Of a stretch of DNA of 10,745 nt, positions 3,001 through 9,989 are shown piece by piece. The stretch spans positions 1 through 10,745 of the forward strand of contig NZ_JAQFIQ010000064.1 of the NCBI RefSeq assembly GCF_029504745.1. The letters run 5' to 3'. Made by a program: the position numbers and the translations under genes. The stretch comes from Breznakia sp. PF5-3 (lineage in GTDB: Bacteria > Bacillota_I > Bacilli_A > Erysipelotrichales > Erysipelotrichaceae). The notes below the pieces were generated by a model. That model did no database searches, was not told where the DNA came from, and saw only the letters and a program-made list of their open reading frames with translations. The number at the start of each line of letters is the position of its first letter. The first letter of the stretch is position 1.

Positions 3001-4002
3001 TGGATTAGTACACACAAAATTCATTTTAAAATCTTTTGCGTTACTGCCTCCCACAACGTTTCTCTCATAACTTTCACCACTTATTGGTTTTAATACACTA
3101 TGGGTTGTACCCTTCATATAATATCCATAAACCCCATTACCAAAAGCACTAGTTGAATAAGCAGAATCTAGGGTAAACATTGCATTCCACAATAATCCAT
3201 TTGGCATTTGTGATTGATTTATATTTGACAAAGTATAACCATTTTGTCTTTCCACAGTATATAAGTTTTTATCTACCATCCCTGTGTTATACATGATGTG
3301 ACCTGCTGTTACTTCTTTATTAGGGTTTGTATGTAATGCAAAACTAACTCCATCTGCTTCTGCTGCAGTAAACGTTCCTTCAATTACAAAACTACGTGAA
3401 AAATCTAAGGTAAACTTTGAATTTACTAATCCTGCTGTATATTTGGAAAAACTTATTGTGTTCCCATTGATAAATGGAGAATTTGTATCTTCTGATTTTG
3501 ATATTTTAAATGCTTCAGATAAGCCTCCTGAAGAGAATGGTGTGACTAATTTTGTCATCACATCTGTCGAAACTTGATCTGACTTTTCTTTTTGTACTGA
3601 TTGAATATTATCTACTTCTACACTAATTGTCGTATCTAATTTTTCATATCCATCGTCAGATGCGTTTTCTTCACTATCTCCTGCTTTATTTATTTTTTTT
3701 ATATAACTTACATTAAAGTTAAATGTTCCGTTTTCATTTGCCTCATAAGTAGGATTACTCAAATCAACTTGCACACCTAAGTCATCTTTAATTGCAACAA
3801 TTTCATACATTGTTGTATCAACATCAGATAAATCAAAGTTGATTGATGCCTTCGTCTTATCATCACTGTACTCAACGTCACTGCGTATCTGTGGTATATT
3901 TTCATTTTCATTTGCTACCACATTTGAATACAAAGATGAAACACTTGTAATTCCTATCATGAAAGCAATTAAAACTTTCGTAAATTTACTAATTTTTTTC
4001 AT
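1..4002 (-). CDS. Large secreted / cell-surface protein, 5'-complete and 3'-truncated by the window edge (at least 1334 aa): signal peptide, N-terminal beta-rich region, ConA-like (L-type lectin-like) domain, unassigned beta region, DUF5011-like Ig domain, then Big_3-like Ig repeat array. Putative lectin adhesin.
   Basis: Absent from the supplied track, presumably because no stop lies inside the window. I read every + strand triplet in phase 1,4,7... from 1 to 4002 and none is tta/cta/tca, so the minus frame is open throughout. ATG is at 4002..4000, AGAAAGG at 4016..4010 (7 nt upstream), and an in-frame TAA at 4020..4018. The N-terminus MKKISKFTKVLIAFMIGITSVSSLYSNVVA/NENEN looks like a Gram-positive signal peptide. 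The translation is non-degenerate and domain-like along its whole length. The C-terminus (any LPXTG or other anchor) lies outside the window. Confidence 0.88.
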   Translation of the reverse strand, partial: MKKISKFTKVLIAFMIGITSVSSLYSNVVANENENIPQIRSDVEYSDDKTKASINFDLSDVDTTMYEIVAIKDDLGVQVDLSNPTYEANENGTFNFNVSYIKKINKAGDSEENASDDGYEKLDTTISVEVDNIQSVQKEKSDQVSTDVMTKLVTPFSSGGLSEAFKISKSEDTNSPFINGNTISFSKYTAGLVNSKFTLDFSRSFVIEGTFTAAEADGVSFALHTNPNKEVTAGHIMYNTGMVDKNLYTVERQNGYTLSNINQSQMPNGLLWNAMFTLDSAYSTSAFGNGVYGYYMKGTTHSVLKPISGESYERNVVGGSNAKDFKMNFVCTNPETGDGQLTVSIGGFQRIYSIGGKTVFGSDYKNVYFAMSSWVPEVHPDGTSTPVGTASLTFNSTYYTDWPPTHDATSFWADRNKDGIFETQVNTTTSFAYPNETIQVKHELTTVSSTALATINANTRIEQLKDSEGNLFTGNNPKSNGTSITNNVNAYNTTDISNNLVVPLSASNVNSGKTAFTYEMTAPDVGNGQTTITEVATFGQMPFDPITSTSAQFKVVGRPTLNVGVEKVFIEYGSATINLRDGLKGKTYDGSSLLSLASDPTNLKLTYSPTTAINTSSPGTYVVSYTLKDTRTNLTETKAKTYVVLDKGWEVSPDKTKAINAKDAFIKVSEAKALANKEALITVNDAKVTSTDGSNPTPVVTASDFTTIKAGKLGSYNVTYSYGSGTSAVSKTVKVTVIADDAKTNGENSLNAENVTLTLTQANGLANKDALLDATKAVVTKADGTTDKPKLSDTEYALVKNATAAKTVTLNYSYGSGATLVEKSVVVTITDDGSQTSVNAKDAIIKVSEAQALANKEALINVNSATATAGGTSVTPVVTASDFTTIKAGTLGTYNVTYSYGSGATLKSTTVKVTVVADENEISNDRSNALSAKDAFIKVSEAKALANKEALITVNDAKVTSADGSNPTPVVTAMTFTTIKLGTLGSYNVTYSYGSGASAVSKTVKVTVIADDAKTNGENSLNAENVTLTLTQANGLANKDALLDATKAVVTKVDGTTDKPKLSDTEYALVKNATTAKTVTLNYSYGSGATLVEKSVVVTITDDGSQTSVNAKDAIIKVSEAQALANKEALINVNSATATAGGTSVTPVVTASDFTTIKAGTLGSYNVTYSYGSGTGLKSTTVKVTVVADENEISNDRSNALSAKDAFISVAEAKALANKEALITVNDAKVTSADGSNPTPVVTAMTFTTIKAGTLGSYNVTYSYGSGASAVSKTVKVTVKDSIEENPTNKERIGANDFAISKEEVAGLNNAKVIDLAKAEASSTVDGSKVAITV
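166..2025 (-). repeat. In-frame tandem repeat, period 813 bp (271 codons), about 2.3 copies. Each unit encodes three different ~83-94-aa Big_3-like Ig domains, each with a YSYGSG core, giving the order 1-2-3-1-2-3-1.
   Basis: The shadow ORFs in the supplied track recur at an exact +813 offset: 774..1067 vs 1587..1880, ends 751 vs 1564, ends 493 vs 1306, starts 1064 vs 1877. Direct comparison of 241-300 with 1054-1113 gives 4 mismatches in 60. Homology fades left of ~166 and right of ~2025. Approximate copy boundaries are 2025-1213, 1212-400 and 399-166. Confidence 0.9.
2070..2330 (-). other. DUF5011-like bacterial Ig-like domain of the surface protein
   Basis: RPTLNVGVEKVFIEYGSATINLRDGLKGKTYDGSSLLSLASDPTNLKLTYSPTTAINTSSPGTYVVSYTLKDTRTNLTETKAKTYVV follows the pattern P-x-I/L-x-x-G ... 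hE-x-G-S ... D-G ... GTY-x-V-x-Y-x-h-x-D ... h-x-V-x-V typical of these domains. Confidence 0.5.
2800..3545 (-). other. ConA-like / L-type (legume-like) lectin domain of the surface protein (about 248 aa, boundaries approximate)
   Basis: The translation FSSGGLSEAFKISKSEDTNSPFINGNTISFSKYTAGLVNSKFTLDFSRSFVIEGTFTAAEADGVSFALHTNP...NAMFTLDSAYSTS...LTVSIGG...VYFAMSSW fits the remembered L-type lectin pattern: F-x-F-x-F/I strand followed by xDGhxFhh, then a later hhEFDT-like strand. Length also fits. Assigned from memory of the family, not from an HMM. Confidence 0.5.
3913..4002 (-). other. Signal peptide of the large surface protein (about 30 aa)
   Basis: MKKISKFTK (basic n-region), VLIAFMIGITSVSSL (hydrophobic core), YSNVVA|NE (A-x-A-like cleavage context). 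The cleavage site is approximate. Confidence 0.7.
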
Positions 4003-4155
4003 TTTTTTTCCTTTCTGTTAATAATTCTTTAAACTATTCCTATGCGTTTCTTTTATCGCCCTTCATTCCCTCCTTTAACGCAAAAGCAATTTCATTAAAA
4101 AAACGAAAACCCCAATTCGTTGATTTAAGTAATAAAATTGCTTTTTCAAACGTTA

Positions 4156-4182
4156 GACGGTCTCTTCTCAATACTGGTTTTA
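4156..4182 (-). promoter_or_regulatory. Candidate ECF-sigma-type promoter upstream of the surface-protein gene: TTAAAAC-N17-CGTCTAA
   Basis: On the minus strand AAAC is at 4180..4177, the 17-nt spacer at 4176..4160 and CGTC at 4159..4156. Core and spacing are the same as the site upstream of the sigma gene (5616-5642). Lies ~154 nt upstream of the ATG at 4002. AAC at -35 and CGT at -10 is the general ECF promoter signature. Confidence 0.45.
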
Positions 4183-4291
4183 AATTTCTTAAAATAATTT
4201 TCACTATTCGTTTACACTATAAAAATAGTGTTACTGTTTTAACTTTATATACGCACTATATTTTCAAATTTTAAATAGCTTTGTAATATGA

Positions 4292-5569
4292 TTAATCAAT
4301 ATTGATAACGTATCGTTCATAATTCCCTGCAATATTATACACATATAGTTCAAGTATCCCATTAAAAGGCCCTTTGATTTGATGATCATTTGATAAACTC
4401 TCTTTCTTTTGGTCATGAACATAATAAGATTTTTCATAATCAATTTTAATATCGTCAATAATATCAAATGTAAGTACATTATTTTTATACTTAATATTTT
4501 CTAATTTTGGCTCATCACGATAAATATTTGTAATCTTTATCGTCTTGTAATCTTCTTCAGTTGAAACTATATATGTTCCATTTTCATTCACAATAAAACT
4601 AATATAGTTTTCTTTTTTATCGCGGATATTCAAACTTTCTCCATCTTTATTTTTTATTTTAACTTGTTGTCTTGCAACTGGTTGATTAAAATACGCGTAT
4701 ACAATTACATCTTGATTTGTTAAAGCTGTATCATAGGTAATAGTCTCTAACATAAGACTGATATCTTCACTTTGATTTGTATAATTATAATAAAGTATCC
4801 CTGCTGTTGAAAACACGCCCAACGCAAGGAGCGCTCTCCCTATTTTTTCAGTAATTGAAACAATCCCCATCTTAGCTGAACTTGGTAATGCTTTTTCGGT
4901 GATTAATCCAAAAATAAACTTACTTTTATCCGCTGGCATTGAAATATTTTCCACCATGTAGGAAAAAAACTGAAAATACATTAATGGAAATACAATATTC
5001 ATGTTCTTTGTTGTCAGCCCCTTTTTATATAAATCTGGTTTAATCATATCGCGTACGATTTTTAACCTTGTTTTTACTGTACCCTCTGGCATCTGCATAA
5101 CTTCAGCTATTTCTTTGACACTTAAATCATCAAAATATTTTAATTTTGCAATTTGTTCATAATTAGTAGGCATCTTTGCAAATTCTGTAGCTATGGTGTT
5201 CCATATTTCATTGCGATTAAATAAAGTAGCTGAATTTTCTTTATTTTCAAGTGTATCAATGATTCCATCATCACTATATGTCTGTTTTAACGTTCTACTA
5301 TTTTTTCTTAAGATTTCAATAATTTGTCGATATGCAACTGAAAAAAGCCATGAATGAAATGCAGAAAAATTATTGAGTGTATGAATTTTTGTGTATACTT
5401 TAATAAATGTTTCTTGAACAACCTCTTCTGCGTCTGCATTGTTTTTTAAATATGAAACAGCAAAATAATATATTGTTGATTCATAGTGTGCATAGATTTT
5501 CTCAAAAGCTTTCTGATCCCCTTTCATTAACTGCAATACAGTTTCATCTTCAATCTTTTTTGTTTTCAT
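4292..5569 (-). CDS. ECF-family (sigma-70 group 4) RNA polymerase sigma factor fused to a C-terminal extension with a transmembrane helix and a ~165-aa beta-rich domain (membrane-tethered, one-component sigma)
   Basis: 425-aa ORF with GAGGG 9 nt upstream of the ATG. Residues ~1-90 match sigma region 2 (DQKAFEKIYAHYESTIYYFAVSYLKNNADAEEVVQETFIKVY...FHSWLFSVAYRQIIEILRK). Residues ~125-178 match region 4 (PTNYEQIAKLKYFDDLSVKEIAEVMQMPEGTVKTRLKIVRDMI). A clear TM segment IGRALLALGVFSTAGILYY covers residues 243-261 (nt 4787-4843). Residues 262-425 have a beta-sandwich-like composition. No HxxxCxxC zinc anti-sigma motif is present. Confidence 0.85.
   Translation of the reverse strand: MKTKKIEDETVLQLMKGDQKAFEKIYAHYESTIYYFAVSYLKNNADAEEVVQETFIKVYTKIHTLNNFSAFHSWLFSVAYRQIIEILRKNSRTLKQTYSDDGIIDTLENKENSATLFNRNEIWNTIATEFAKMPTNYEQIAKLKYFDDLSVKEIAEVMQMPEGTVKTRLKIVRDMIKPDLYKKGLTTKNMNIVFPLMYFQFFSYMVENISMPADKSKFIFGLITEKALPSSAKMGIVSITEKIGRALLALGVFSTAGILYYNYTNQSEDISLMLETITYDTALTNQDVIVYAYFNQPVARQQVKIKNKDGESLNIRDKKENYISFIVNENGTYIVSTEEDYKTIKITNIYRDEPKLENIKYKNNVLTFDIIDDIKIDYEKSYYVHDQKKESLSNDHQIKGPFNGILELYVYNIAGNYERYVINID
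4787..4843 (-). other. Transmembrane helix within the sigma-factor fusion protein
   Basis: Nineteen uncharged hydrophobic residues, IGRALLALGVFSTAGILYY, preceded by EK and followed by the acidic/polar NYTNQSEDIS. A weaker aromatic hydrophobic patch, IVFPLMYFQFFSYMV (residues 192-206), leaves the topology formally ambiguous. Confidence 0.7.
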
Positions 5570-5615
5570 ACTTTCGCCCTCACTTTTTACTTTAAACAGA
5601 ACCTGTCATAAATAG

Positions 5616-5642
5616 GACGAAGTAATTGTAGATTTCGTTTAA
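5616..5642 (-). promoter_or_regulatory. Candidate autoregulatory ECF-type promoter upstream of the sigma gene: GTTAAAC-N17-CGTCCTA
   Basis: On the minus strand AAAC is at 5640..5637, the 17-nt spacer at 5636..5620 and CGTC at 5619..5616, ~47 nt upstream of the ATG at 5569. I saw no convincing sigmaA -35/-10 pair between the pot terminator and this gene. Confidence 0.5.
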
Positions 5643-5661
5643 CTTTTTTTTATTTTCATAA

Positions 5662-5720
5662 TTTTTATAAAAAAATACCATGATGAATACTCCTTATACG
5701 AAATATTAATCATGGTATTT
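5662..5720 (-). terminator. Rho-independent terminator of the pot operon
   Basis: Begins 10 nt after the potCD stop. 12-bp arms AAATACCATGAT (5673-5684) and ATCATGGTATTT (5709-5720), with an inner AATA/TATT extension (5686-5689 / 5704-5707). On the minus strand the downstream arm runs into a continuous 7-T stretch (ATCATGGTATTTTTTTAT: 3 T's in the arm, 4 beyond it). Confidence 0.6.
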
Positions 5721-5729
5721 CAAGTAACC

Positions 5730-7592
5730 TTATTTTGCTTTCACTTTTATCCAAAGCTCAGCTAATACCTTTTTCATTTTCTCATTATAGTTAAAGATTT
5801 CATCTTTTTCATATCCGCTACGAGGAATATAAGCACTGTTCCCTTTAAACTCATTATTTGCTAATTTTTCTCTTACCTTTTCTACACTTGATGTATAGCC
5901 TACATAAGCAGAATTGCCTTCTGCTACACTCTCTTCAAGATTGTAGTTAATATATTCCTCAGCTAGTAAAGGACATGTACTATTCTTAGGAATTACCATT
6001 CCATCTGACCATAGATTTGTCCCTTCTAATGGTTCAAAATATTGCATCTTAGAATTTTCATCATGGATATAAGCAGCATCGCCACTATAAACAACAGCAA
6101 TATCCTTTTCACCATTGATCATTCCATCAATAACTTCATCTGTGACAATAACTGGATTATTTTCTTTCAACTCTTTAAGCCATTCATAAGCTTCATTGAT
6201 TTCTTTCTCATCCGTTGTATTCATAGAATATCCCAATGCTTTCAATGCCATCATGAAAGAATCTCTTTCACTATCATAAACATATATTCTACCCTTATAC
6301 TTAGGATTTTTTAAAACATTAAACCCTTCTTTTTCAACATCTTCTTTCTTCACTGTTTCACTATTGTAGATAATTCCTACACTTCCCCAAAAATATGGAA
6401 TACTATATTCATTTTTAGGGTCATAAGACAAATTCAACACTTCAGAAGATAATCCACCATAATTGGTAATATTTTTTAAATCAATCTTTTTCAACATGTC
6501 TTCTTGAATCATTCTTTCTATCATATAATCTGATGGAATTAATACATCATAACTCTCTCCACCTAACAGTTTTGTATACATTTCCTCATTGGAAGCAAAA
6601 ACAGAATAATTTACAGTTACATTATATTTTTCTTCAAACCCTGAAATTGTGTCTTCTCCTACATACTCCCCCCAATTAAATACATTTAACGTATTACAAC
6701 CATATTCTTTGATTGGATCTATCTCACTTGAAGCATTTCCTCGCAATGCATTCAATCCAGCAATCCCCAATCCTAAAACAATCGCTGAAATTACAAACAC
6801 ATGACGATATGATCGATTGGTATATCTCTTTTTTCGCATAGACACAAGGTTCACCACAACAAGAGCAACTGTAATAAATAGGACTATGATAGTTGATAAA
6901 GAGTTAATCGTTGGATTTACCCGTTTTGACATTGTATACACCATTATTGAAATATTATTAACGCCTTTTCCGGTTACAAAATAAGAGATAATAAAATCAT
7001 CAAATGACATTGTAAAAGCAATCAATGCTCCTGCTACAATTCCAGGCATCAATTGAGGTATCACTACTTTGCGAAGTGCATAAAAAGGGGTAGCTCCCAA
7101 ATCCATTGCAGCCTCTGCTAAATTTGGATCTAAACGTCGTATTCGTGGCATAACACTTAGCATCACATAAGGGATACAAAAAATAATATGAGATAAGAGT
7201 AAAGTGAAAAAACCTTTTTCAATATGTAATGAAGTAAAGAATAACATCAATCCAATAGCGGTAACAATCTCTGGATTCATAATTGGTAAATTATTGATTT
7301 GTATTACAATCTCCCGTAATATTTTCTTTGATCTTGAAAGTCCAATACTAGCCAATGTTCCAACAATCGTTGATACAACAGTTGCAATAATTGCAATCAA
7401 CAATGTATAGTAAATCGATTCCAGCATTGTCTTATTAGCAAACATTTGCTCATACCAACGAAGTGAAAATCCTGTAAACTTTGATAATGACTTAGAACTA
7501 TTAAAAGAAAAGAACATCATATATATGATAGGTAAATAAAAGAAGACAAGCATTCCACCTAAAAAGATTTTTGATCCAATTCGCTTTTTCAT
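5730..7592 (-). CDS. potCD: Spermidine/putrescine ABC transporter permease PotC fused to the substrate-binding protein PotD (620 aa)
   Basis: Residues 1-~255 form a six-TM permease with the EAA loop EAAMDLGATPFYALRKVVIP. An extra TM, HVFVISAIVLGLGIAGLNAL, covers residues ~263-283. Residues ~296-620 are PotD-like (NVFNWGEY..., YDVLIPSDYMIERM..., IPYFWGSVGIIYN..., LWSDGMVIPKNS...). The start overlaps the potB stop (TAATG). Confidence 0.85.
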   Translation of the reverse strand: MKKRIGSKIFLGGMLVFFYLPIIYMMFFSFNSSKSLSKFTGFSLRWYEQMFANKTMLESIYYTLLIAIIATVVSTIVGTLASIGLSRSKKILREIVIQINNLPIMNPEIVTAIGLMLFFTSLHIEKGFFTLLLSHIIFCIPYVMLSVMPRIRRLDPNLAEAAMDLGATPFYALRKVVIPQLMPGIVAGALIAFTMSFDDFIISYFVTGKGVNNISIMVYTMSKRVNPTINSLSTIIVLFITVALVVVNLVSMRKKRYTNRSYRHVFVISAIVLGLGIAGLNALRGNASSEIDPIKEYGCNTLNVFNWGEYVGEDTISGFEEKYNVTVNYSVFASNEEMYTKLLGGESYDVLIPSDYMIERMIQEDMLKKIDLKNITNYGGLSSEVLNLSYDPKNEYSIPYFWGSVGIIYNSETVKKEDVEKEGFNVLKNPKYKGRIYVYDSERDSFMMALKALGYSMNTTDEKEINEAYEWLKELKENNPVIVTDEVIDGMINGEKDIAVVYSGDAAYIHDENSKMQYFEPLEGTNLWSDGMVIPKNSTCPLLAEEYINYNLEESVAEGNSAYVGYTSSVEKVREKLANNEFKGNSAYIPRSGYEKDEIFNYNEKMKKVLAELWIKVKAK

Positions 7593-8417: not shown

Positions 8418-9989
8418 TTAGAACCCCATTTTTTCCATCACATGGATATCTTCTGGATCAAAATCAATTCCTACATGTGTATCAACAGTTGCATTTCTAG
8501 TTGTATGAATTTTAAACTCTCTACCTATTGTTGAAAACGATACAATATATTTTCCTGGTGTTAGTTCATCAACATCAAAATCATAATCAACATTTCTGAC
8601 TTCAATATCTTCATCTGTATCCAAATTCCAACTTACCGCATCTGCCCAAGTTCTCAAATCTGTATCCAACGCTTGGCTTTCCTGAATTTCATCTAGGGTA
8701 GTAAAAAAATCAAAAGCTGCAATCCCAATCCGCTTCTTTTCATCTGTTACATATTTTTGCTTTACCACAAAAATATCAACTTGAATCTTAGTACCTTTGC
8801 TCGTTGAGAAAGTAACTGGATAAGTTCCTGCTTCTGCTTTTATATCATACTCTATATTGGCAATCGACAAATAATCTTCACTTTCCGCATCCCATGCCTG
8901 TGCATCTGCTCTAGCGATAATATCGTCATCATTCAATTCTTCTAAATCTTGAATATCTAAATAGAAATTATTTGCTGATATGTATTCACCTGCTTCTTCA
9001 TTATATATAGGTTTCTTTTCATACACAGTCAATGTGACATCAACATGGCTTCCTCTCGATGTTTCGACAATAATTTCATTGTGCACGCCCTTAAACAAAA
9101 CAGATAATACTTTCCCATTCAATTTTCCTTTTCCCTTTTTCACAATATCTATATCTTCAGGACGAATCACAATATCAACATCTTCATTCTTTTTAAATCC
9201 AAAATCAACACATTCATAGTTATGCTCATCAAAAGCAACTAGATAATCTTCTTTCATGATTCCATCAATAATATTACTATCCCCAATAAAATTTGCCACA
9301 TATTCGTTTTCTGGCTCATTATAGATATCAGTTGGTGATCCAACTTGTTGGATTTCTCCATCTCTCATGACAACAATTTTATCTGACATTGTTAATGCCT
9401 CTTCTTGATCATGCGTCACATAGATAAACGTTATTCCTACTTCTTGTTGAATCTTTTTAAGCTCTAATTGCATTTCTTTTCTCAACTTTAAATCAAGTGC
9501 CCCTAAAGGTTCATCCAATAGCAAAACCTTTGGTTCATTTACAAGCGCACGAGCAATAGCAATACGTTGTTGTTGCCCACCAGAAAGTTGATCGACATTT
9601 CTCTCCTCGTACCCTTCCAAGCTTACTAGCTTCAACATTCTTGTAACTTTTTGACGAATAACATCATCACTCATTTTTTTGATTTTTAAGCCAAATGCTA
9701 CATTATCATAAATATTCATATGTGGAAACAATGCATATTTTTGAAATACGGTATTGAGTTCTCTTTTGTATGATGGAAGCTTTGAAATTTCTTCATTATC
9801 AAAAACAATACTGCCTTCATCTTGTTCCAAAAAACCTCCAAGAATTCTAAGTAATGTGGTTTTACCACAACCTGATGGTCCTAGTAAAGTTACAAATTCA
9901 TTTTCATAAATATCCAAATTAATACCTTTAAGAACCAATGTATCATCAAAGTTCTTAACGATATTTTTAAACTGTATCAATTTTTTCAT
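8418..9989 (-). CDS. potA: Spermidine/putrescine ABC transporter ATP-binding protein PotA with a ~175-aa insertion in the C-terminal TOBE domain (523 aa from the preferred start)
   Basis: Walker [10 protein letters not shown], signature LSGGQQQR, Walker B LLLDEP, H-loop VTHD. TOBE-like strands follow: [11 protein letters not shown]...[18 protein letters not shown]...[16 protein letters not shown] prefer the start at ATG 9989..9987 ([10 protein letters not shown]...) with GAGAGGA 8 nt upstream. The track start at 10031 would overlap the upstream gene by 28 nt and has no RBS that I can see. Confidence 0.88.
8487..9017 (-). other. Insertion in the PotA TOBE domain made of two tandem ~75-85-aa Ig-like (Big_3-like) repeats
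   Basis: Repeat 1 (~8763-8987): [73 protein letters not shown]. Repeat 2 (~8499-8732): [77 protein letters not shown]. Shared columns: ADA-x-x-W, D-x-x-x-x-N-[IV]-[ED]-YD-[IF], G-x-Y-x-V-[TS]-FST. Confidence 0.6.

Follow-up and report, generated by a model that had tools for sequence, protein, structure and literature searches.

A predicted membrane-tethered ECF sigma factor in Breznakia and a candidate promoter type common to its own gene and an adjacent giant surface-protein gene

Sensor-fused sigma factors and the Breznakia locus

Sigma factors of the extracytoplasmic function (ECF) type that are fused to a transmembrane sensor are known, among them IutY, ECF48/52/53, and ECF263 with its 5-7 helices (PMC8999054, PMC7826278). 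Here we describe a putative addition to this short list, encoded in a 10,745-nucleotide stretch of contig NZ_JAQFIQ010000064.1 of the insect-gut bacterium Breznakia sp. PF5-3 (referred to throughout as the window), where a gene for a 425-amino-acid ECF sigma factor (minus strand, 5569-4292, ATG at 5569) is followed by the 5' 4 kb of a giant surface-protein (adhesin) gene (minus strand, 4002-1, ATG at 4002) that continues past the window end. Judging from the sequence comparisons set out below, the two genes probably form a compact module, in which the tethered sigma factor drives its own gene and the adjacent giant gene through a shared promoter type.

IutY of Pseudomonas putida (ECF243), a sigma/anti-sigma hybrid, combines an N-terminal ECF sigma domain, one membrane segment and an extracytoplasmic C-terminal domain in one polypeptide, a layout like that predicted for the window sigma factor. 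It controls a neighbouring surface-protein gene, and its activation is by regulated proteolysis, in which the sigma part is set free through Prc and RseP (PMC8999054, PMC5411451). It differs from the present case in its FecR-type anti-sigma/signalling domain, its TonB-dependent outer-membrane receptor, its Gram-negative host and its siderophore-receptor target, whereas the window sigma factor has no FecR or other recognisable anti-sigma domain, carries two immunoglobulin (Ig)-like domains, and is found in a Gram-positive-type host with a giant adhesin gene as its putative target. The actinobacterial ECF52, ECF48 and ECF53 (for example SCO4117 of Streptomyces coelicolor) also have a long C-terminal extension, there with membrane helices and an outside domain of carbohydrate-binding type, and activation by proteolysis has been proposed for them (PMC8999054, PMC5826349). 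They differ in having a zinc-finger anti-sigma motif and a proline-rich region, in phylum and sigma clade, and in their pleiotropic developmental regulon. SigI/RsgI of cellulolytic clostridia shares with the system proposed here the multiple paralogues per genome, an outside sensor domain, autoregulation, and dedication to genes for large extracellular or surface proteins by way of paralogue-specific promoters (PMC10575876), but SigI is not an ECF sigma factor, RsgI is a separate protein, and the targets are cellulosomal. Membrane-bound one-component transcription activators of the ToxR/CadC type, in which a single membrane helix connects a cytoplasmic DNA-targeting domain with a sensor domain outside, offer a possible model for the action of a tethered sigma factor, although they are winged-helix activators and not RNA polymerase subunits.

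By sequence and by fold, the sigma domain is closest to SigW of Bacillus subtilis (ECF01), whose anti-sigma factor RsiW spans the membrane once and is eliminated through regulated proteolysis. In contrast to the arrangement described here, RsiW is a distinct polypeptide, which contains a zinc-binding domain, and the SigW regulon serves envelope stress and antimicrobial resistance. SigW promoters are of the AAC/CGT type (tGAAAC at -35, CGTA or CGTC at -10) and SigW is autoregulated; B. subtilis ECF promoters generally have AAC at -35 and CGT(A/C) at -10, with autoregulation being usual (PMC5758882). It is standard for ECF sigma factors to regulate their own gene along with a neighbouring one, and this logic is unsurprising to a specialist. 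A literature search found no SigW-like sigma factor joined to a membrane helix and to Ig domains in tandem (official tables of ECF groups were not compared), no report of such a sigma factor confined to Erysipelotrichales, and no case in which such sigma factors are systematically paired with genes for giant surface proteins by promoter variants specific to each locus.

In the window sigma factor, sigma2 and sigma4 (residues ~1-182) are followed by a linker that is conserved (~183-240), then by a helix predicted to span the membrane (242-265) and finally by two beta-sandwich domains of Ig-like type (270-425). Pfam assigned Sigma70_r2 (25-93), Sigma70_r4_2 (130-170) and Sigma70_ECF, and the presence of sigma-70 regions 2 and 4 only, with neither region 1.1 nor region 3, is that of group 4. 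The NCBIfam model at the ECF superfamily level, TIGR02937, was passed with 94.9 bits against a cut-off of 42.9. The SigW equivalog models NF007223 (108.1 bits against 209) and TIGR02948 (93.2 against 243) both remained below cut-off, indicating that the protein is not a SigW orthologue, though SigW is its closest relative. A profile of 22 full-length homologues searched against the Protein Data Bank (PDB) matched ECF sigma factors only, with B. subtilis SigW (5wuq) at E = 1e-41. An AlphaFold2 model built from the homologue alignment comprises the sigma domain, two low-confidence helices (187-227), the helix at 242-265 and two beta-sandwich domains (270-425) with a predicted local distance difference test (pLDDT) score of 86-96. 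Foldseek matched the N-terminal part to SigW, AlgU and sigmaE and the last part to tandem Ig domains (NCAM Ig1-2, intimin). Hydropathy is maximal at 243-261, and lysine and arginine occur only on the N-terminal side of the helix. In the predicted topology the sigma domain lies inside and the Ig-like domains outside, tethered by a single helix.

This arrangement of sigma domain, membrane helix and two Ig-like domains is common to the 22 full-length homologues. The full-length homologues that were placed on contigs show 28-36% identity. The family was found in Erysipelotrichales (Breznakia, Coprobacillaceae). The linker retains G184, P187 and F202 among homologues and is rich in glycine and alanine in the relatives. 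A protein annotated in 'unclassified Breznakia' is 99% identical to the window sigma factor; a scan of genome contigs yielded a single true full-length relative, from Breznakia pachnodae, and when metagenomes were scanned with the family alignment, nearly all matches were generic ECF sigma factors, because the patterns had been drawn from the sigma core.

Candidate promoters in the window and in related loci

Upstream of each of the two genes lies a candidate ECF promoter. The predicted autoregulatory promoter of the sigma gene, at 5612-5642 (plus strand ATAGGACGAAGTAATTGTAGATTTCGTTTAA), reads TTAAAC-gaaatctacaattactt-CGTCCTAT on the minus strand: the -35 element TTAAAC at 5642-5637 is followed by a 17-nt spacer and the -10 core CGTC at 5619-5616, which extends as CGTCCTAT to 5612, with transcription predicted to start at ~5608. 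The predicted ECF promoter of the giant surface-protein gene, at 4152-4182, reads TAAAAC-cagtattgagaagagac-CGTCTAAC on the minus strand, with its -35 element at 4182-4177, a 17-nt spacer, the -10 element CGTCTAAC at 4159-4152 and a predicted start at ~4148. Both sites are on the coding strand of their downstream genes, CGTC lying 46 nt from the ATG of the sigma gene and 153 nt from that of the adhesin gene, which are separated by an intergenic spacer of 289 nt. The sigma-side site is positioned between the ribosome-binding site and the intrinsic terminator of the upstream potABCD operon. This predicted terminator (5666-5720, minus strand), a 20-pair hairpin of ~-24 kcal/mol (z = -6.2) followed by a U-run, sits 25-80 nt upstream of the predicted sigma promoter and insulates the sigma gene from the pot operon; with so strong a terminator just upstream, the sigma gene needs a promoter of its own.

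The two sites, each with its exact 17-nt spacer, had formed the core of the original prediction, and both are present in the window as described there. When both strands of the whole window were searched for AAAC-N17-CGTC, we obtained two matches (minus strand, 5640-5616 and 4180-4156) against 0.10 expected, and two or more matches arose in 0 of 200 dinucleotide shuffles. The pattern search likewise agreed that minus-strand CGTC occurs six times (2831, 4156, 5616, 6803, 9161 and 9653), that it is intergenic only at 4156 and 5616, and that those two alone have AAAC 17 nt upstream; a single coordinate, previously given as 6804, was off by one base. The remaining four tetramers fall inside the adhesin, potCD and potA coding regions, and relaxing the pattern to AAC-N17-CGT added one minus-strand site only, at 9571 within potA. 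Since the two spacers share no similarity, the sites constitute a bipartite motif and not a duplicated stretch, and we ruled out DNA duplication as their origin. A simple scan of the coding strand of both intergenic spacers gave no usable housekeeping promoter.

Eleven independent loci encoding homologues (L001, L016, L018, L019, L020/21, L022, L024, L106, L107, L108 and L109) were searched with AAC-N17-CG[TA]C, then with a leave-one-locus-out matrix scan and by inspection of spacers. Surface-protein genes lie downstream of the sigma gene in all 11. A site was found before the sigma gene or the head of its operon in nine of the 11 (L001, L016, L018, L019, L020/21, L022, L024, L106 and L107), and before the giant or surface gene in each of the ten loci having one (L001, L016, L019, L020, L022, L024, L106, L107, L108 and L109), and the motif is conserved across the homologous loci. 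The family consensus is AGTGAAC-N17-CGTCTAAC, the motif at these sites can be written tGAAC-N17-(C)GTCTaAc, and a T-tract often comes after AAC, a feature known from B. subtilis ECF promoters (PMC5758882). Five of the eight exact matches to AAC-N17-CGTC in these 11 loci lie within 150 nt upstream of a sigma operon or giant gene, regions that make up 1.4% of the strand-bases searched (binomial P = 2.8e-8). With a matrix derived from the other loci only, the adhesin-side site ranked first of 21,428 window positions at 14.4 bits, the next scoring 7.6, and a top score this high was reached by 9.5% of shuffles.

Additional high-scoring family motifs occur away from the two expected positions, at L018 6138, L016 11040, L019 115 and L024 6685. 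Their locations, beyond the final gene of a module, at the start of a contig and within an LRR (leucine-rich repeat) gene, are such that they could be further targets or remnants.

The promoter variants themselves differ among loci. The -10 variant is CGTC in the window, L001, L019 and L024, TGTC in L016 and L018, GGTC in L020, GAAC in L107 and xxACTA in L106. The same -10 tetramer was found at both sites of a locus in six of eight cases (permutation P = 0.0012), and the sites of a locus also resembled each other in -10 octamer distance (P = 0.003) and in -35 distance (P = 0.023); these P values are approximate because the loci are phylogenetically related, and part of the homologue sites had first been picked by eye, before the permutation test. 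Because the -10 variant matches within loci and differs between them, this covariation points to the adjacent cognate sigma factor, and not a general ECF sigma factor, as the reader of both promoters, as a dedicated sigma/promoter pair that co-evolves would be expected to show, and we regard it as the strongest argument for that assignment.

The gene content of the relatives is richer than that of the window. Their usual order is the sigma gene, a gene for a membrane-anchored protein of 220-440 amino acids, often a gene for an LRR/Ig-like protein of 814-891 amino acids, and the gene for a giant protein of up to 4841 amino acids. The partner encoded directly 3' of the sigma gene in every relative has a signal peptide, Listeria-Bacteroides (Flg_new) repeats and a C-terminal membrane anchor, and the protein encoded ahead of the giant gene in many relatives combines LRR with Bact_surface_Ig-like domains. 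The window module has neither partner gene. The description 'one-component' hence fits the window and does not extend to the relatives, and because their partner genes are missing at this locus, the window module is either a minimal version or has its partners encoded elsewhere. The giant proteins of the loci have at least three unrelated N-terminal types, so the conserved feature is 'sigma plus giant surface protein', not a particular adhesin.

The proposed module and its alternatives

On the reading that we consider probable, RNA polymerase carrying the sigma domain would recognise promoters of the form (t)G/AAAC-N17-CGTCTaAc. The promoter 46 nt before the sigma ATG would provide positive autoregulation, and the second, nearer to consensus and ~150 nt before the giant surface-protein gene, would drive adhesin expression. 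Given this consensus-like promoter before the adjacent giant gene, that gene would be the main, and possibly the only, local target. At the level of sequence, the sites have AAC at -35 and a group-specific -10 element, and one of them precedes the sigma factor's own operon, as is characteristic of ECF promoters. The original view that one ECF promoter type is common to both genes and is served by this sigma factor is thus supported by the homologous loci. Activity would be gated by the tether, with the Ig-like ectodomain sensing a signal. For the activation step we favour signal-dependent cleavage of the tether by site-1 and site-2 proteases, which would release approximately residues 1-185; by analogy with IutY and the actinobacterial ECF52 group (PMC8999054, PMC5411451), and with RsiW/SigW, we give proteolytic release, within this reading, somewhat better than even prospects as the activation route. 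It is less likely that the sigma factor acts while tethered, by means of its long flexible linker of ~60 residues.

Several observations, in addition to the qualifications attached to the permutation test, weigh against the proposed module. The predicted membrane helix has no more than moderate hydrophobicity (Kyte-Doolittle mean of 1.41), and neither the linker nor any other part of the window sigma factor or of the 51 homologues contains a FecR or other recognisable anti-sigma domain in Pfam. The -35 elements of the window, TAAAC and AAAAC, depart from the family GAAC. The sigma-side site scores 5.2 bits with the family matrix and ranks ninth where nine sites are expected, which is chance level, and in L108 and L109 the sigma gene is not preceded by an ECF site. 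Promoters of the CGTC type are read by several of the ECF sigmas of B. subtilis, namely sigmaM, sigmaX, sigmaV and sometimes sigmaW (PMC5758882). In the related genome GCA_029504775.1, two paralogous sigma/giant-adhesin modules both use a CGTC-type -10 element, so cross-recognition between them is possible. Finally, a scan of the sigma-adhesin spacer found no terminator, so transcription may read through into the adhesin gene, and the second promoter might then be dispensable for co-expression of the two genes.

The low score of the sigma-side site, which results from CGTCC in place of the family CGTCT and from the -35 TAAAC, could also mean that only the adhesin-side site works, the sigma-side match being due to chance and the sigma gene being expressed from an unrecognised housekeeping promoter without autoregulation. 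The two loci that lack an ECF site before the sigma gene fit such a situation, in particular L108, which has an extended -10 element of housekeeping type, TGATATAAT, upstream of its sigma gene. We nevertheless consider this explanation unlikely. From base composition, we estimate that AAC-N17-CGTC is expected only ~0.001 times in the ~100 nt between terminator and start codon, the distance from the site to the ATG is the same as in L001, L019 and L024, and our scan revealed no housekeeping-type promoter on the sigma coding strand. In addition, both blocks of the sigma-side promoter are unchanged in the closely related locus L110 (contig JAQFIR010000063.1 of GCA_029504775.1, 98.4% identical to the window) despite 10% local divergence, with differences at 16 of 160 surrounding positions, four of them in the spacer, although this conservation is not significant alone (P ~0.2). 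The sigma-side site thus draws its support from an exact match to the ECF core, from where it lies, from the equivalent placement of the sites in L001, L019 and L024, and from its conservation in L110; of the earlier claim of autoregulation, core and position stood and the family-matrix score gave no backing.

A different possibility is that both sites are real ECF promoters that are read mainly by another ECF sigma factor, belonging either to a paralogous module or to the general envelope-stress response, and not by the adjacent one. The overlapping CGTC preferences of the B. subtilis sigma factors would permit this, as would the coexistence of L110 (contig 63) and L024 (contig 19) in GCA_029504775.1. 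The L024 module encodes a giant protein of 4841 amino acids with a pectate-lyase-like region, and its promoters end in GCGTC(A/T)TAC; the promoters of the two modules include TAAAC...CGTC (P0001) and GTGAAC...GCGTCTTAC (P0014). We judge this explanation to be improbable, since -10 and -35 variants are alike within loci and different between them, and since the linkage of sigma and giant gene persists in 11 of 11 loci despite the unrelated types of giant protein. That the two matches arose by chance in intergenic DNA rich in AT, with housekeeping promoters or read-through serving the genes instead, is very improbable: AT-rich spacers are rich in weak promoter-like sequences and shuffles do sometimes equal the top matrix score, but the exact pattern exceeded expectation in the window, both sites lie on the correct strand at plausible positions, and the paired arrangement recurs in independent loci with within-locus covariation.

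Beyond the proposed module for this locus, it is possible, though we hold it to be doubtful, that Erysipelotrichales contain an undescribed group of self-contained ECF sigma factors, with a predicted tether, an ectodomain of two Ig-like domains in tandem and nothing recognisable as an anti-sigma domain, each dedicated to one giant adhesin gene through a co-evolving promoter variant, and with several, possibly orthogonal, pairs per genome. In its boldest form this proposal would have the ectodomain related to the N-terminal module of the adhesin; were that true, the sigma factor would receive feedback from its own adhesin by sensing when that protein is exported, assembled or engaged. Giant adhesins are costly and decide where gut and insect symbionts attach, and for Erysipelotrichales hardly anything is known about what turns on the genes that encode them. 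The locus offers a testable circuit, with a sensor-sigma factor and two promoters within 1.6 kb, and would extend the sensor-fused ECF sigma factors by a Gram-positive group whose ectodomain is Ig-like. The approximately ten natural sigma/promoter variants, which have apparently co-evolved, could serve as orthogonal expression parts and represent a natural experiment on changes of ECF -10 specificity.

The giant surface protein and the surrounding sequence

The 5' region of the adhesin gene codes for a signal peptide and an N-terminal module, followed by a domain of ~260 amino acids (residues ~165-425), possibly of L-type lectin kind, and then by long repeats. The window part of the protein had no match above threshold in Pfam, NCBIfam or PDB sequences. 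The original prediction had called it a lectin-type adhesin, and its segment FTLDFSRSF...ADGVSFALH presumably resembles the core of L-type lectins. The L-type lectin family PF18483 did not match the window adhesin even at E = 10. An exhaustive homologue search with residues 140-420 gave 13 homologues, most of them giant proteins that carry SLH, MBG or Big domains, and a word-indexed search with the adhesin domain gave no match. PF18483 matched three of eight homologues, all below threshold (best E = 2e-4; P0053, 16.9 bits against a gathering score of 78.3). A profile of the domain found no match in the PDB, and a single-sequence AlphaFold2 model of it, at a pLDDT of 32, was unusable. From these comparisons the lectin label is plausible but unproven, the sub-threshold matches being confined to homologues; 'giant surface protein or adhesin', the part of the description that holds, is the safe one.

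Three features of the adhesin gene and its product may be noted. The region 1-2100 contains long direct repeats that recur every ~815 bp and are 88-96% identical to one another (BLAST self-matches through L110), a period that exceeds the limit of 500 in Tandem Repeats Finder. Residues 2-61 (3820-4002) have a sub-threshold match to DUF4179 (E = 6e-4, 20.7 bits against 30.1), a domain typical of Firmicutes anti-sigma factors; this match is probably driven by the signal peptide. The first Ig-like domain of the sigma factor (4292-4780) shows weak similarity to the N-terminal module of the adhesin (3586-4002) in hhalign (E = 0.001, probability 22%), with the pattern 'I.Y...T..V.V ... eNGtY.f.V' and for the type of adhesin that the window has in common with L001, L020 and L106; when the sigma ectodomain was compared with the adhesin N-terminus by BLASTP, no significant similarity resulted. 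This resemblance in sequence could hint at self-recognition between sensor and target.

The adhesin mRNA is predicted to begin with a 5' leader of ~146 nt (4003-4150, minus strand) that contains a long hairpin (z = -2.1), with an inner stem AACGAA/UUCGUU followed by U7, which could serve as a transcription attenuator or antitermination target. A scan of 3900-5800 with Rfam returned nothing relevant, and no family matched the leader.

Comparison of the window with L110 revealed identical tracts (10745-7750 and 5245-3996) alternating with patches of 7-11% divergence (5745-5496 and 3745-2500), the latter patch corresponding to the N-terminal domains of the adhesin. We considered whether the identity upstream of the adhesin gene reflects constraint and ruled this out, as the flanking 1.2 kb is identical too and the divergence is mosaic. 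This pattern points to recombination, or to diversifying change, that affected the head of the adhesin and the sigma promoter region.

All genes of the window are on the minus strand, and its G+C content is 32%. Upstream of the sigma gene are a gene for a helix-turn-helix (HTH)-cupin regulator (10537-10004), a potA-like ATPase gene (10031-8418), potB (8416-7592) and a potC-potD fusion gene (7592-5730). The potA-like ATPase has an additional C-terminal region of ~200 amino acids beyond its TOBE domain, and the potC-potD product is a single protein of 620 amino acids that unites permease and solute-binding domain.

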